64,000 bases of DNA from a phage. Of this stretch, positions 11,906-19,432 are shown one piece after another. The stretch's first letter is position 1. Each line of letters begins with the position of its first letter. The translations under genes were made by a program, and so were the position numbers. The notes beneath the pieces were generated by a model that saw nothing but the letters and a program-made list of their open reading frames with translations, searched no databases and was not told the origin of the DNA. Location: the sequence record PZ386948.1. One strand, written 5' to 3'.

Positions 11906-12121
11906 TTACACCAGTTTGACCATACAATCGCCGTATTTCCACTTAGAAATAGACTTTTCACCATTAGAATAATAAACTTCAAGTTTAGCACGATTATTTT
12001 TAATTTGAATAACCTTTGCTGTCATCAAAGTTCCATACCCATAATAAACTGCAACTTCATCACCTACATATACAGCGCTTCCGCGGTAATCGTGAATATA
12101 GTCAGTTCCTTCGAGCATCAT
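11906..12121 (-). CDS. Hypothetical protein
   Basis: 71-aa ORF. Confidence 0.5.
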   Translation of the reverse strand: MMLEGTDYIHDYRGSAVYVGDEVAVYYGYGTLMTAKVIQIKNNRAKLEVYYSNGEKSISKWKYGDCMVKLV

Positions 12122-12381
12122 TTAAAATATTCTCGCAGTTGGTCAAATCCACCAATATGACTTCCATCAGGAGCAAATACCTGAGGCATTGTCAAGCCGA
12201 TTTGAGTATCACGACCTAGTTTAGTCAGAAGCTCAGCGATTTTCTCATCATCAAAAACACCTTTTTCCGGCATAATGTTGATAAATTCAAACGGCTGTTT
12301 CTTCACGGTCAAAAGACGTTTTGCATTATCGCAATACACACATTTATGAATGTTGCTATCATAACCATATACTTTAAACAT
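12118..12381 (-). CDS. nrdC: Thioredoxin/glutaredoxin
   Basis: 87 aa; CVYC redox motif; MFKVYGYDSNIHKCVYCDNAKRLL... Confidence 0.9.
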   Translation of the reverse strand: MFKVYGYDSNIHKCVYCDNAKRLLTVKKQPFEFINIMPEKGVFDDEKIAELLTKLGRDTQIGLTMPQVFAPDGSHIGGFDQLREYFK

Positions 12382-12627: not shown

Positions 12628-13017
12628 TTAATCCAAAATATTATTAGGCATTGGTTGAACACTCACAAGTTCTTTAAAGAACTCAGTAGAGTCAGGCAAT
12701 TTAACCATTTCCGGAGCATGCTTACTGAATTTATGTTTACATTGACGGCATTTATATTCAAGCTCTGGTTTACGCCAGTTAATCAATTGAACTTGTTCAG
12801 TACCGCATTCAGGGCAATTAGGAACGTTTTTAGAAGCTCTTTCACGTCGTTCAACCATAGCCATAATAGCATCCCATGCTGGAGGTTTAAAATCTAAATC
12901 GTCGCAGCCGTGAATCTTTCCACGCATTTCCATATCATCTTCCTCACCAGCCATAATAATTTTAATTAGACTAGAATTACTTGAAGCTGCAATATCTTCT
13001 AATAAACGCTTTTTCAT
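12628..13017 (-). CDS. Hypothetical protein with Zn-ribbon-like CxxC...CxxC
   Basis: 129 aa; CPECGTEQ...CRQCKHKF. Confidence 0.5.
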
Positions 13018-13940
13018 TTCAGTACCTCAATAGCATCACGTAAACCATTTGCTTTGGCGGTTAAAGCCTTAAGAACTTTAGTATGCTCTTCAATTTGTTT
13101 TTCAACTTCAATCAAACGAGCATTGAGATATTCGCGTTCTTCTTTCATAGTATCATTTCCATGATTAGATTTTGGTGTAGGTTTAAATTCACTAGGGTCC
13201 TTTAATTTAATAACAAATTTAGTTTCAAACAGTGAAAGACCATAATTCGTATTATCATCAAAGGATTTGACTACATCCATATCAGATAATAACACGCGCA
13301 AATTATAAGCCAAAGAACTAATAGTTTCATTGTGTTTATTAGCTTCGCGTGGTTTCATATACGGAAGATTTTTATATATCTCATGCGGAGCGCAAACGAT
13401 AATTGACAATTCAAATTGTCCATTCTGGGACGATGGAATGAATTTAGCCGTAACCCAGTCTTTTACATTCACATTAATAGTACGGTTATCACCATGACAA
13501 AACAGTCTACGAGAATGCTTAAAAAGCATATTCACGTTATTATTGAATTCGTGTGAAAATTCACTAGCAAATTTTTCTTTACTATCTTTAGAAAACCATT
13601 CTTCTAAATAAGTTCTTTTCACATCGTTAATAATATTAAATGTAACAACACTAGCATTTGATACATTAGTCTCAATGTAGCTTGGATACATAAATTTTTT
13701 AACATTATTAACAGCTATCACAGAAGATAGTAATCGGGAACGTTTGAACCACTCGAGCAAAGAACCAAGAGAATGTGAATACGCATTTTGTGTATCTTTA
13801 CAAATATGGTTTTCCCATCCAATATAGTCTAAAAAATCACGAAGAATATTATTGATTACTGCTCTGTGTCCTATCTGATAATCACGATGTTTAGTAATAA
13901 GACTGTCAAAATAATCAATATAATGTTTACGAGTTTTCAT
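13014..13940 (-). CDS. Hypothetical protein, paralog family member D (C-terminal coiled coil)
   Basis: 308 aa; shares SRLLS and C-terminal heptad-repeat tail with ORFs 13995-14993, 15051-16070 and 16079-16981. Confidence 0.6.
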   Translation of the reverse strand: MKTRKHYIDYFDSLITKHRDYQIGHRAVINNILRDFLDYIGWENHICKDTQNAYSHSLGSLLEWFKRSRLLSSVIAVNNVKKFMYPSYIETNVSNASVVTFNIINDVKRTYLEEWFSKDSKEKFASEFSHEFNNNVNMLFKHSRRLFCHGDNRTINVNVKDWVTAKFIPSSQNGQFELSIIVCAPHEIYKNLPYMKPREANKHNETISSLAYNLRVLLSDMDVVKSFDDNTNYGLSLFETKFVIKLKDPSEFKPTPKSNHGNDTMKEEREYLNARLIEVEKQIEEHTKVLKALTAKANGLRDAIEVLK

Positions 13941-13994
13941 GTTCTTCTCACTTGGTTAATGATTTATACTCCGAGCCATCCTTGGCTTTAAATT

Positions 13995-14993
13995 TTACTT
14001 AATTAACTGTAAAGCTTGTTCAAGACGATCCAAGCGATTGACAGATTCTTCCCAAATCCTTTTAGCCTGCTCATATTCTTTCTGCGCTTTATTAGAAATT
14101 TCTAGAACTTCTTTATAAGCTTTTTCTAATGCAATAACTTCTGGACGAATTTCTACCGGTTCAGGTGAATCATCAAGACATTCCATTAGTTCCTCAAGGG
14201 TAGTTTCTTCTTTAGGAGTATTCACAATTTCATCACATTTTTGTTGGTAAATTTCTTTACTAGTAGGTGAATAAGTACATTTCACTTCACGAAGACTAAC
14301 TACAATTTTATATCCTTCCCAACCGCATATATTCTTAAAAGGATATGTATGAATATTTTCTACTGTTTCCATACAGCCCAAAACCGCCTTTAATTGATAA
14401 GTTATAGTGCTAGCAATTGAGAAAAATTTATTAATATTCTTTTGGTTAGCGTTTGGTGTAAAAAATCCATAATTCACAAAAATAGCTACTTTATTTTCAT
14501 CAAGCTCATATTCTTTTACGATAATCATATCAGAAGCCAAAGGATGAATTTGACGATAATCGCCATAACATAATTTAGAAGCTGATTTTAGAATTTGTCC
14601 TTTGAAAAGTCTGAAATTACTAATCCAACGACGAGTAAAAATATTCTCAGGGGCTTCTTTATTAAGATGATAAGAATTAACATCACCGAACCAATTATAT
14701 CCTACTACATCTTTAGTTCGTTTAATTTCTTTCCCAAATTTACTAAGAATATCTCTGTTGACTAAGTATGAAAGAAGACGAGACCCTTTAAAGGTTTTCT
14801 TAATGTCATCTTTATCTACACGGCTAGAAATTTCACGAACTTCATGAATAAATTTGCCGGAAGAAACAATACTTGCATCAGTATTATTGAGCCATTGATT
14901 GATAATAGAAATCACACTATTCTTACTAGACATAGGTTTAACTTTATCATCAATAACGCTATTGAATGATTTGATATATTCGTTACGAGTCAT
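13995..14993 (-). CDS. Hypothetical protein, paralog family member C
   Basis: ATG at 14993 with GGAGG RBS; the track N-terminal extension overlaps the promoter. Confidence 0.6.
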   Translation of the reverse strand: MTRNEYIKSFNSVIDDKVKPMSSKNSVISIINQWLNNTDASIVSSGKFIHEVREISSRVDKDDIKKTFKGSRLLSYLVNRDILSKFGKEIKRTKDVVGYNWFGDVNSYHLNKEAPENIFTRRWISNFRLFKGQILKSASKLCYGDYRQIHPLASDMIIVKEYELDENKVAIFVNYGFFTPNANQKNINKFFSIASTITYQLKAVLGCMETVENIHTYPFKNICGWEGYKIVVSLREVKCTYSPTSKEIYQQKCDEIVNTPKEETTLEELMECLDDSPEPVEIRPEVIALEKAYKEVLEISNKAQKEYEQAKRIWEESVNRLDRLEQALQLIK

Positions 14994-15020
14994 AATAATC
15001 TCCTCAGTAGAAAGTAAGAA

Positions 15021-15050
15021 CATTATACCACATCCTTGTGGCAAAGTAAA
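15021..15050 (-). promoter_or_regulatory. T4-type early promoter
   Basis: Minus strand GTTTAC (15045-15050), 18-bp spacer, TATAAT (15021-15026). Confidence 0.65.
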
Positions 15051-16070
15051 CTAGTTCAGTGCATTTAGTGCATTGTTCAGTTTAGAACGTTGCTTCGTGA
15101 GATTTTTGACTTTTTCTTGAGCTTTTTCTAGCATCTTTTCAGCTTCTAGCACTTCATTGGTCGCTTTAACGAGTTCATCATCTACTGCCTTGATAGACTT
15201 CTCAATCGCATCCGCGTGCCATTTTTCAACAGGTTTAAGACTCGGATTTTCAATAGGAAGAAAATTCACTTTATTGAATTTCCATGCATCTTTATTACCT
15301 GAACTATACATCCAAAATTTAGGATCGTTTGATGAGTAATTAGATGAATTTAAGTTATCTTGCACTTCTTGCTTTTTCTCTTGCGGGACTTCGTCCTTTC
15401 TCAAAAAATCGTATTTAAATGAAACGATCATATCAAGTTCATATGTTGTTGTATGTTCCCAATTTCGCTCAAAACGAGGTAAAATCTTAGAATGAACAGC
15501 GGCAACAACATCCATATACTTAAATGCTTCTGTCAACTGCGATTTAAGGCATTCGCAAATTGAAAGAGAATTTTTTGTATTAGGTTTAAAGCTAATTCGT
15601 GCAGTTCTATTATTTTCTTTTAATGGTCTTACTTCCATCTGAAGAGTATAACCATCAAATTTCAGGTTCTTTAAGTTAATATCAGAACCTTTTAATCGAC
15701 TAGCCGTCGACAAAATTTGCTTTAATTGTTTACGGAATAGAGCAATAAATCTCCATTCAATACGATAATGATTTGGATTGAAAAATCCAGATGATAAATC
15801 GACCTTACTCTGACCAACACCTTGAACAAACAGAGGATTTTTATAATCAATAGTTTTACAGAAATCGGTGAGCTGCTCACGAGCAGTCATTTGTGTAATA
15901 TATCCCGCTTTACTAAAATGACGTAACCATTCACTGCTATTCATATACTTAAAGTGAATGGAACTATTAACTCTATCAGGGTCTAAATTATTTTGGCACA
16001 AAAATGTCATAACATCACGAGTATAGCTGGCATTACGAACCATATCTTCAATTTGAGAACGAGTTTTCAT
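15051..16070 (-). CDS. Hypothetical protein, paralog family member B
   Basis: 339 aa; QILSTASRL motif shared with member C (QILKSASKL); coiled-coil C-terminus. Confidence 0.6.
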   Translation of the reverse strand: MKTRSQIEDMVRNASYTRDVMTFLCQNNLDPDRVNSSIHFKYMNSSEWLRHFSKAGYITQMTAREQLTDFCKTIDYKNPLFVQGVGQSKVDLSSGFFNPNHYRIEWRFIALFRKQLKQILSTASRLKGSDINLKNLKFDGYTLQMEVRPLKENNRTARISFKPNTKNSLSICECLKSQLTEAFKYMDVVAAVHSKILPRFERNWEHTTTYELDMIVSFKYDFLRKDEVPQEKKQEVQDNLNSSNYSSNDPKFWMYSSGNKDAWKFNKVNFLPIENPSLKPVEKWHADAIEKSIKAVDDELVKATNEVLEAEKMLEKAQEKVKNLTKQRSKLNNALNALN

Positions 16071-16078
16071 AGTGTTCC

Positions 16079-16981
16079 TTAAGATTTAAGTAAATCAACA
16101 ATTTTAATTAATTTTTCACGCTCAGATTTAGCTTTACTACTCAATCCAGATAGTCTGAAAATTTCATCGTCATATTGTTGAATAGAAATATTCAGCTCTT
16201 CAATTTGCTTATTAAAATAATCAATTTGTTCAGAATGTTTTTCGTTACTACGAACTGGTACAGGTTTTGTAGGCAATTTAGTTGAACTGGATTCATCCGG
16301 GCGATAAATTAAAATACAACTTGAACCAATAGGGCATTTAGCACCAGATGAATATTCTAACGTTCCAGCTTCTTTTAAAACTTCAAAAGCTAAACAGAGA
16401 TGATGCCCCATATTAACATAATCTGTAGAGCGAGCTCTGATATAATAATCATCGCCGCGAATACTAAATTTAAAGCATTTAAGGTCTTCTGTATTATTGG
16501 TCTTAAAAATCATTTGTTTATCTAGACCTTTAGCTAATCGAGCGCCTAATGCTAATAATCGTCGTTGATTTTCCCACAAATCCGCAATCATTTGATCGAA
16601 TGATAATTTCGGCATTAGTCGACCATAAAGGTCATATCCTTTATTATAATTGCGAAGGATTTCACTCGCATTAATACGAGACAACGCTCCAATTTTATTA
16701 AGGGCTTTCATAATGCGATTAGATAAACCCATTCCAGACCCGTTTGTTCGTTGTAAATGTTTATCTAATCCAAACCCAATATCAACTTTAAATTTATCTA
16801 AAATTTCAGCATGAACATCTCTGTCAATAACATTCAAATCCAAAGTTGGGTTAAATCTATGAAAAAATTTATCTGGCTCTCCACGACGAAGTACAGTCCA
16901 TTCATTTAATTTTTTATTAACTAAAGATTTAATTACTGCATTGACATTATTAATTACTACTGACATATTTTTCTCACTCAA
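16079..16981 (-). CDS. Hypothetical protein, paralog family member A
   Basis: 300 aa; coiled-coil C-terminus. Confidence 0.55.
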   Translation of the reverse strand: MSEKNMSVVINNVNAVIKSLVNKKLNEWTVLRRGEPDKFFHRFNPTLDLNVIDRDVHAEILDKFKVDIGFGLDKHLQRTNGSGMGLSNRIMKALNKIGALSRINASEILRNYNKGYDLYGRLMPKLSFDQMIADLWENQRRLLALGARLAKGLDKQMIFKTNNTEDLKCFKFSIRGDDYYIRARSTDYVNMGHHLCLAFEVLKEAGTLEYSSGAKCPIGSSCILIYRPDESSSTKLPTKPVPVRSNEKHSEQIDYFNKQIEELNISIQQYDDEIFRLSGLSSKAKSEREKLIKIVDLLKS

Positions 16982-17437: not shown

Positions 17438-17965
17438 TTATGCGAGTACCGTCTTTAACCGTTCTTCAAACTTCCGAAGAGTATTCTGGCGTTCAGCTCT
17501 TTGCTTTTTGTAAGTTTCAATACGCTCTGAAATGAGAGTGTATCGTTCATTTACTGATTCTTTCATAAAATCAGGAATTTCACGAGAAGCTTTAATCTCA
17601 TCAAATTTATCAATAACAGCTTGCTCTTCAGCAATTAAGTTATCATACATCAAAATATCTTTCTTGATGAACTCAATATCTTCTTGAGTTACACGAGATA
17701 ACTTAGATGCTTTATCCTTTTTGTACTGTTCGTTAGTATCACGAGACCAGTGTAATGTACGATTTTTATTCGTATTCTTGTAAATTTCTACAATACCAAT
17801 CTCATCAATAATAACGATCCAATTCCAACGAGATTTGTAAATTTGTCCTCCGTCAACCGTGATTTCACCTCCGATTGAGATGTCATTAAAGAACTTGCTT
17901 TGTGCTTCTGATTTAAATTTACCATCGTTGTAATTTACCAGGTTGAAAATATCTTTAGCGTTCAT
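17438..17965 (-). CDS. Hypothetical protein (coiled-coil C-terminus)
   Basis: ATG at 17965 with GGAGG RBS; track extension (..CGTIQLS..) is translated promoter sequence. Confidence 0.55.
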   Translation of the reverse strand: MNAKDIFNLVNYNDGKFKSEAQSKFFNDISIGGEITVDGGQIYKSRWNWIVIIDEIGIVEIYKNTNKNRTLHWSRDTNEQYKKDKASKLSRVTQEDIEFIKKDILMYDNLIAEEQAVIDKFDEIKASREIPDFMKESVNERYTLISERIETYKKQRAERQNTLRKFEERLKTVLA

Positions 17966-18429: not shown

Positions 18430-19398
18430 TTATTTCAGAAGAGTAACCTCAGCGATTTCTTCCCAACCGTTTTTGTCGGTCATAATAAAGTCAGCAAGAT
18501 AAAGAGCAGTACGCAGTGAAACATTGCGTAAACGATTAACATTGACTTTCATCCATGATAATGCTTTATAAGTTTCTTCATCAGAAAGACCGCGCTTTTG
18601 CATCATGTCAGTTGAAAGAATAACATCTTCAACCCTGACCATAATTTCTTCATTAGTGTGAACACCCAAATCTAAATAAACTGAGCGGGACACTAATGCT
18701 TGTAAATGTGGAGCAAGTTTAGTACCACGGTCTAATTCGCGGTCAATATCAACGTTTGTGATAAAAACAATCGTTCCTTTAAATTCAAACTCACGCTCAA
18801 TGCCTTTTTCTTCTAAGTAAGAAGATGCAGTGCTCCAGCAGACTTTACGGGTCTCTCCGGTGTCCAGAGCAGCTTTCAGAAGATTAAGAATGTCCATATC
18901 AGAGAAAACATCCACATCATCAATCAAAAGGACAGAATTCTCTTCACGATTATTCCAAAGCTGTTCATAAAGACCGATACCAGAGATTTTACCATTAATG
19001 CTTTTATACTCAATGTATCCAATATCATTTGCTTTATTTAAAGCTTTATCTAAAGAATACGTTTTACCAATACCTGCTGCTCCCGAGATAATTAATGAAC
19101 GAATGTTTCCGTTAATAATACCATTCGTCATCATTCCCATAACATTAAATCTTTTATTAATGCGGGTTTTCATATCTTCATACGATTCTTTAACTTCTTC
19201 AACTTTTACACCATCATATGAAATGTCTGATTTGTAAACCCAAACACCGCGACGTTTACCGTCAATTTCAACAAAAACTTTACCATCTCCTTGTGCATCT
19301 ACCGGAGCATTATCTGGGAACCATTCGCCTAAGAGCTCAAAAGTTCCAGAGATTTCTTTACCGAAGTAGATACCCTTATTGATAGTTACAGTTTTCAT
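18430..19398 (-). CDS. AAA+/P-loop ATPase
   Basis: Walker A GAAGIGKT and Walker B VLLIDDVD; ATG at 19398 with GGAG RBS. Confidence 0.65.
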   Translation of the reverse strand: MKTVTINKGIYFGKEISGTFELLGEWFPDNAPVDAQGDGKVFVEIDGKRRGVWVYKSDISYDGVKVEEVKESYEDMKTRINKRFNVMGMMTNGIINGNIRSLIISGAAGIGKTYSLDKALNKANDIGYIEYKSINGKISGIGLYEQLWNNREENSVLLIDDVDVFSDMDILNLLKAALDTGETRKVCWSTASSYLEEKGIEREFEFKGTIVFITNVDIDRELDRGTKLAPHLQALVSRSVYLDLGVHTNEEIMVRVEDVILSTDMMQKRGLSDEETYKALSWMKVNVNRLRNVSLRTALYLADFIMTDKNGWEEIAEVTLLK

Positions 19399-19432
19399 TT
19401 TGTTCTCCAATTTCACATTTGTTTTGATAGGG

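Follow-up and report, generated by a model that had tools for sequence, protein, structure and literature searches.

Four tandem genes of a T4-like phage, nrdC.3 to nrdC.6, are diverged paralogues of one family with a possible role in counter-defence

We examined a 64,000-nucleotide stretch of DNA from a T4-like phage (sequence record PZ386948.1; the whole stretch is referred to below as the window), in which four consecutive open reading frames (ORFs) on the minus strand prove to be diverged members of a single family. The 3,968 bases that they occupy match those of Shigella phage CM8, a T4-like Tequatrovirus, at 100% identity and are 90–97% identical to hundreds of T4-like phages. From their position and the annotation of relatives, the ORFs are the orthologues of nrdC.3 (13014–13940, 308 amino acids (aa)), nrdC.4 (13995–14993, 332 aa), nrdC.5 (15051–16070, 339 aa) and nrdC.6 (16079–16966, 295 aa). 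They lie in the gene order of the annotated phages RB5 and AR1, between nrdC/nrdC.2, with the glutaredoxin gene nrdC at 12118–12381 on the minus strand, and nrdC.7. A comparison with the T4 nrdC.x ORFs, proposed in a first-pass annotation that drew on the letters of the sequence alone, gives 93, 90, 92 and 97% identity to the T4 proteins for nrdC.3, nrdC.4, nrdC.5 and nrdC.6, respectively. The positions given in that annotation hold for the four ORFs except at the start of nrdC.6, where the reading frame stays open back to a TTG at 16981; the most likely start is the ATG at 16966, as annotated in RB5 and others. nrdC.4 begins at the ATG at 14993, with a GAGGAG ribosome-binding site 8 nucleotides upstream. 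The plus strand across the region holds short ORFs only, of at most 62 aa, and no DNA-level repeats linking the four genes were found within the window.

Public databases keep the four ORFs as three separate families, and nrdC.3 and nrdC.4 are merged by PHROGs only (phrog_1435, with nrdC.5 in phrog_2351 and nrdC.6 in phrog_2257). The nrdC.5 protein matches the Pfam family DUF7235 (PF23882) over residues 1–339 with an E value of 1.6e-125 and 419 bits against a cut-off of 30; PF26897 (nrdC.4/nrdC.3 type) and PF26899 (nrdC.6) are precomputed labels on near-identical homologues, the former being found also on a fusion protein whose C-terminal part is of the nrdC.3 type. The earlier statement that no known domain could be assigned needs correcting, in that the proteins do belong to named families, all six of them of unknown function. 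Sequence searches of Pfam, NCBIfam and the PDB with the four proteins gave nothing beyond such families, and no known fold or solved structure matching them was found. Many GenBank and UniRef entries for homologues of nrdC.2 to nrdC.10 are named "thioredoxin", a label that appears to have spread from the neighboring nrdC gene, and one paper takes nrdC.8 for a nucleotide reductase. We rejected a thioredoxin or glutaredoxin identity for the four, none of which has a CxxC motif or a thioredoxin or glutaredoxin match in Pfam or NCBIfam.

When the four proteins were compared with one another by BLASTP, nrdC.3 and nrdC.4 were the only pair linked (E 4e-5), and we therefore built family alignments for profile comparison. 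These were drawn from three protein searches and from the ORFs of 28 related-phage loci, giving 22 local families that were compared with hhalign, with 19 unrelated local families and reversed profiles as controls. The first runs, using small families, had no clear outcome, and one of them was contaminated by P0056, a natural fusion protein that was taken out of the nrdC.5 set because a false link would have arisen. The nrdC.3 and nrdC.4 profiles aligned over 207 columns (98%, E 1.5e-14), and the nrdC.3/4 cluster aligned with the nrdC.5 cluster over 224–227 columns, reaching the last residue (91–94%, E 1e-6 to 1e-7). The nrdC.6 cluster alone gave 13% and E 2e-3 over 146 columns against the merged nrdC.3/4/5 profile, which was the best of 20 targets. 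Its value rose to 85% (E 6e-6, 119 columns) with addition of the Entb_43 protein, a 332-aa single-copy Karamvirus orthologue that alone matches the nrdC.6 profile at E 5e-7, and to 95% (E 2.8e-8, 84 columns) when the 336-aa protein of phage Moon was merged with nrdC.3/4/5. Inclusion of the protein from the Acinetobacter phage Konradin beside Entb_43 gave E 9e-9 over 149 columns against merged nrdC.3/4/5 and E 2e-10 over 86 columns against the same profile with Moon (both 96–97%). All 19 control families stayed at E 0.01 or worse, and controls and reversed profiles compared with the extended nrdC.6 profiles gave 0.06 or worse.

The nrdC.6 link spans approximately the first 170 residues and is anchored on two motifs, which the first-pass annotation had already picked out and which are not random: they form the best-aligned blocks of the profile-profile alignments, and their order is the same in each of the four proteins. 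In the profile alignments the first, of the SRLLS type, lies in nrdC.3 at 13692–13742 (RSRLLSSVIAVNNVKKF), with equivalents at 14730–14786 in nrdC.4, 15855–15908 in nrdC.5 and 16640–16693 in nrdC.6, all on the minus strand, the four versions being RSRLLS..V, GSRLLSYLVNRDILSKFGK, AGYITQMTAREQLTDFCK and IGALSRINASEILRNYNK, respectively. The second, of the QILKSASKL type, follows at 13488–13532 in nrdC.3 (NMLFKHSRRLFCHGD), 14559–14600 in nrdC.4 (GQILKSASKLCYGD), 15681–15722 in nrdC.5 (KQILSTASRLKGSD) and 16520–16564 in nrdC.6 (RRLLALGARLAKGLD), again on the minus strand. In addition, nrdC.3, nrdC.4 and nrdC.5 have M(K)TR at the N terminus in common.

By their collinear profile-profile similarity, which exceeds that of unrelated controls, the four ORFs are one superfamily, and the three families of Pfam and PHROGs are united within it; the proposal of tandem paralogy is thus borne out. 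The genes themselves had already been recorded as ORFs of T4; the apparent novelty lies in placing all four in a single family of shared layout. If they were instead four unrelated ORFs with coincidental motifs and coiled-coil ends, or T4 proteins with housekeeping roles, one would expect BLASTP to connect little more than nrdC.3 with nrdC.4, the proteins to fall into three separate Pfam families, and comparisons of the tails by themselves to be insignificant, all of which is the case. However, this explanation is contradicted by profile-profile E values of 1e-5 to 1e-10 against controls at 0.01 or worse and by the agreement of the predicted topologies of nrdC.5 and nrdC.6, and a housekeeping role also by the viability of natural and laboratory deletions, so that we regard it as extremely improbable. 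The neighboring nrdC.8 was considered as a fifth member and rejected, having a similar tail but a profile E value of 0.07–0.12.

Structure prediction with AlphaFold2 (AF2) gave a usable model for nrdC.6, with a predicted local distance difference test score (pLDDT) of 77 and a predicted template modeling score of 0.65. The nrdC.5 model, at a pLDDT of 51, was built from an independent alignment and has an element order identical to that of nrdC.6 from motif 1 to the C terminus. In both, the helices bearing motifs 1 and 2 lead into a strand-strand-helix-strand-strand core, followed by a disordered linker (residues 222–281 in nrdC.5 and 232–247 in nrdC.6) and a C-terminal helix. The heads are homologous and probably represent a single fold that has diverged, sharing their motifs and, in the two models, the order of secondary structure; they are not unrelated domains, as the variable effector domains that had been envisaged would be. 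A Foldseek search of BFVD with the nrdC.6 model returned 11 matches at E 1e-3 or better, all of them proteins of 280–378 aa from T4-like phages of Enterobacter, Pectobacterium, Acinetobacter, Yersinia, Klebsiella and Erwinia; eight of these fall outside the nrdC.6 family, with 12–16% identity to the query. The nrdC.5 model found comparable proteins from Serratia, Citrobacter and Erwinia phages, and a protein of Erwinia phage Cronus is present in both lists with a probability of 1.00. Both lists also contain a 175-aa protein of the Klebsiella phage KPV15 (L007:12548-13075); its similarity to the nrdC.3/4/5 profile is confined to core plus tail (E 8.5e-5), and it may represent a shortened family member without the N-terminal helical region. 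Many matches to tail terminator and tail completion proteins were obtained with the nrdC.5 model (E 1e-3 to 1e-2, target-normalized TM-score 0.3–0.47, from a query of low confidence) and none in Foldseek with the better nrdC.6 model; we set these matches aside as unreliable.

Each of the four proteins closes with proline-free helical heptads spanning 43–57 residues, so that the tails noted in the first-pass annotation are real, although somewhat longer than the 40 or so residues given there. On the minus strand, they correspond to 13017–13145 in nrdC.3 (residues 266–308) and 13998–14132 in nrdC.4 (residues 288–332), both from a heptad scan; to 15054–15224 in nrdC.5 (residues 283–339, where the scan is joined by an AF2 helix at 283–338); and to 16082–16243 in nrdC.6 (residues 247–300 as counted from the TTG at 16981, with AF2 helices at 247–276 and 282–299). 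The a and d positions of the heptad registers are mostly Leu, Ile, Val or Ala, and each tail is a predicted coiled coil, being a proline-free helix that runs for at least 4–5 heptads and is hydrophobic at a and d. When the 67 window ORFs of 100 aa or more are ranked by heptad score at the C terminus, nrdC.3 to nrdC.6 together with nrdC.8 take five of the top six places. The 175-aa nrdC.8 protein (17438–17965, minus strand), encoded two genes upstream of nrdC.6 and having no match in Pfam, ends in a heptad-type helix of approximately 45 residues.

Inside each family, the tail ranks lowest or second lowest in variability, and in nrdC.5 its helix is the least variable segment of the protein, the poorly occupied N terminus aside. 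What the tails have in common between families is the heptad pattern and an L..A(I/L)..LK at the very C terminus, and otherwise they are family-specific; a register test anchored on the C terminus gave weak support, at about 2 standard deviations. As judged from these sequences, the tail is a conserved architectural feature, and a common docking partner, as had been suggested for it, is not indicated, because each family keeps its own tail sequence. The four adjacent genes lie on the same strand and are thus probably co-expressed. This arrangement, together with the similar L..A(I/L)..LK ending of all four heptad tails, would be compatible with the paralogues joining through their C-terminal helices into one hetero-oligomer with a single function, but nrdC.5 alone suffices against the defense protein Dsr1 (see below), single members are freely lost with copy numbers of 1–4 among relatives, and the tail sequences are family-specific, making such an assembly quite improbable. 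A site resembling T4 early promoters lies at 15022–15050 on the minus strand, between nrdC.5 and nrdC.4 and directly upstream of the latter (GTTTAC, 17 nucleotides and TATAAT, with TG; a consensus match only), and a short GC-rich hairpin at 13971–13988 falls between nrdC.4 and nrdC.3.

We then considered the family across related phages. There is one copy in distant relatives, with Moon, Entb_43 and Konradin each having, upstream of nrdC, a single relative of 332–343 aa whose tail is of the same kind; three copies in RB69 (nrdC.6, nrdC.5-like and nrdC.3) and in nine fetched loci (L013-L021) that keep the order nrdC.6, nrdC.5-like, nrdC.4; and four in T4-type phages. In an Aeromonas phage locus the synteny is broken and no family member is detectable. 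Of the four types, nrdC.6 proteins seem to have the broadest distribution. Each of the genes is dispensable in nature, since each is lost or damaged in some natural isolate. nrdC.4 is missing from LYE-01 and split in a metagenomic genome (L012); Ec_YwIITB1 has a frameshift in nrdC.5, Pinarejo has a disrupted nrdC.6, and in ACG-C40 the stretch from nrdC.5 to nrdC.3 is deleted, leaving the first 71 codons of nrdC.5 and the tail of nrdC.3 (L004:6302-6713).

Members of the family have also been recombined with one another. In Salmonella phage Manna (L027:2715-3752), residues 1–267 of nrdC.6 are fused in frame to residues 250–332 of nrdC.4 at a DEI microhomology, with loss of nrdC.5 and most of nrdC.4, and this hybrid amounts to a natural head/tail swap. 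P0056, the fusion protein mentioned above, comes from a metagenomic contig of 167 kb and joins residues 145–271 of nrdC.5 to nrdC.3-type residues 134–308. A further protein from the protein search, P0229 (173 aa), has an unrelated N-terminal part of 120 aa followed by a tail identical to that of nrdC.5; this may reflect genuine replacement of the head or a chimera produced in assembly, given that a search of 50,697 phage records did not recover the head.

Divergence from the CM8 proteins forms a gradient along the array, as counted in phage records. Identity is mostly at least 95% for nrdC.6, across about 500 genomes, 80–99% for nrdC.5 and mostly 80–95% for nrdC.4, and nrdC.3 is dimorphic, with 140 records at 80% or above and about 200 at about 60%; for the neighbor nrdC.10, most records are at least 99% identical. 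Gene-wide ratios of nonsynonymous to synonymous substitution rates (dN/dS), calculated pairwise against seven Tequatrovirus loci, were 0.12–0.37 for nrdC.3, 0.19–0.31 for nrdC.4, 0.11–0.24 for nrdC.5 and 0.03–0.16 for nrdC.6, compared with 0.01–0.11 for the neighbors nrdC.8 to nrdC.10. The diversifying selection that had been suspected is thus not what we see at the level of whole genes; we observe relaxed constraint or faster evolution together with allele replacement, loss and fusion, and no gene-wide positive selection. The two nrdC.3 alleles, approximately 60% identical with a dS of about 0.9, sit inside genomes that are otherwise 95–99% identical (comparison with L005, L010, L012, L022 and L023), which argues for allele replacement by recombination and not gradual divergence. 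The second allele is common in Tequatrovirus, and a locus search with the nrdC.3 of the window retrieved two near-identical loci only. Nearby, the C-terminal part of nrdC.2 also differs, the protein having 129 aa here, with a zinc-ribbon-like CPEC...CRQC, compared with 104 aa in RB5. In contrast to the adjacent fast-evolving genes, nrdC.10 (18430–19416, minus strand) encodes an AAA/STAND-like ATPase that is found in 1,312 phage records, reaches at least 99% identity within Tequatrovirus and can be traced to Vibrio, Xanthomonas, Agrobacterium and jumbo coliphages.

A function has been published for one member of the array. Srikant, Guegler and Laub (2022, PMC9391042) described a T4 clone with a deletion that removes nrdC.5 among genes dispensable on MG1655; this phage plated on ECOR17 only after removal of dsr1, and nrdC.5 alone from a plasmid restored plating of the deletion phage on MG1655 carrying dsr1. 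T4 nrdC.5 hence neutralizes Dsr1, a sirtuin (SIR2) defense protein, whose sensor is reported to be a tetratricopeptide repeat (TPR) domain that also occurs in Avs7 and responds to the phage major capsid protein (2026 preprint, PMC12803255). The ORF at 15051–16070 is orthologous to this T4 gene, with the same DUF7235 and the same slot between nrdC.6 and nrdC.4 to go with its 92% identity, making the CM8 allele a candidate anti-Dsr1 gene; the published activity is that of the T4 allele. PMC9391042 treats nrdC.5 as a single uncharacterized gene and describes no paralogues, domain layout or tail. For nrdC.3, nrdC.4 and nrdC.6 we found no publications beyond a passing mention of nrdC.4.

Given that T4 nrdC.5 defeats Dsr1 and that the four are paralogues, we reasoned that nrdC.3, nrdC.4 and nrdC.6 are candidates for a similar job. 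We think it rather probable that this tandem array, made up of ancient and far-diverged copies of one Straboviridae-specific gene, encodes dispensable early proteins that inhibit immune sensors. The counter-defense role put forward in the first-pass annotation is established by the published work for T4 nrdC.5, in keeping with its anti-defense neighbors, and would extend by homology to the other three. Of the adjacent genes, gp49.2 is a reported inhibitor of OLD and nrdC.1 of Septu; both resemble the four proteins in being small, having no known domains and lying in the same early dispensable stretch (pin-to-nrdC), but they are unrelated in sequence, much shorter and outside the paralogue family.

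The most likely function of the four proteins would be stoichiometric inhibition of host immune sensors. Such inhibitors would be made early, ahead of late proteins such as the capsid protein; the diverged head would confer target specificity, and the conserved tail may oligomerize the protein or clamp onto the target, either giving higher avidity. As a working model for nrdC.5 we take DSAD1 of the SPbeta-like phages, a phage protein that blocks the SIR2-domain NADase defense DSR2 and binds it directly in published structures. The analogy is one of mechanism only; the target is DSR2 and not Dsr1, and the trigger is the tail tube protein and not the major capsid protein. A more specific version, which we consider unlikely, is that the four are a matched panel of inhibitors, each for a different member of a large family of host immune proteins with a TPR sensor of the Avs7/Dsr1 type and recognition of the major capsid protein, with the C-terminal helix, or the free C terminus whose end point coincides in all four, plugging the sensor before capsid protein is present; duplication and divergence of the heads would in that case have broadened the range of sensors that are blocked.

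Several observations weigh against counter-defense as the common function of the array. Functional evidence is limited to nrdC.5, at the genetic level and in T4, and its mechanism is unpublished, so that its effect on Dsr1 could be indirect. Gene-wide dN/dS is below 1 for all four genes, and the strong conservation of nrdC.6 makes it look less like an arms-race gene. The AF2 models cover nrdC.5 and nrdC.6, not nrdC.3 or nrdC.4, and the former of the two is poor. Finally, profile comparison of the tails alone detected no significant similarity between families (P 0.009–0.27), so a common function of the tail is suggested only by position and periodicity. Some of the same points could be accommodated if the four were early proteins of host takeover that modulate host physiology (transcription, nucleoid or metabolism), with rescue by nrdC.5 on Dsr1-positive cells being indirect: nrdC.6 shows high conservation and a wide distribution, as might a gene whose target stays constant, and similarity to known inhibitors was not found in our searches. 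Nevertheless, plasmid-borne nrdC.5 alone rescued the deletion phage on such cells, none of the four genes is kept in every natural isolate and the flanking genes are anti-defense, and we therefore judge this alternative unlikely.

If inhibition of immune sensors is indeed the common function of the four paralogues, there would be three concrete further anti-defense candidates, nrdC.3, nrdC.4 and nrdC.6, in the reference phage T4, in which most nrdC.x genes are still of unknown function. The layout of head, linker and tail lends itself to truncation and swap designs. Moreover, the series of one, three and four copies, together with the deletions and fusions, would constitute a natural series for the gain and loss of counter-defense repertoires.

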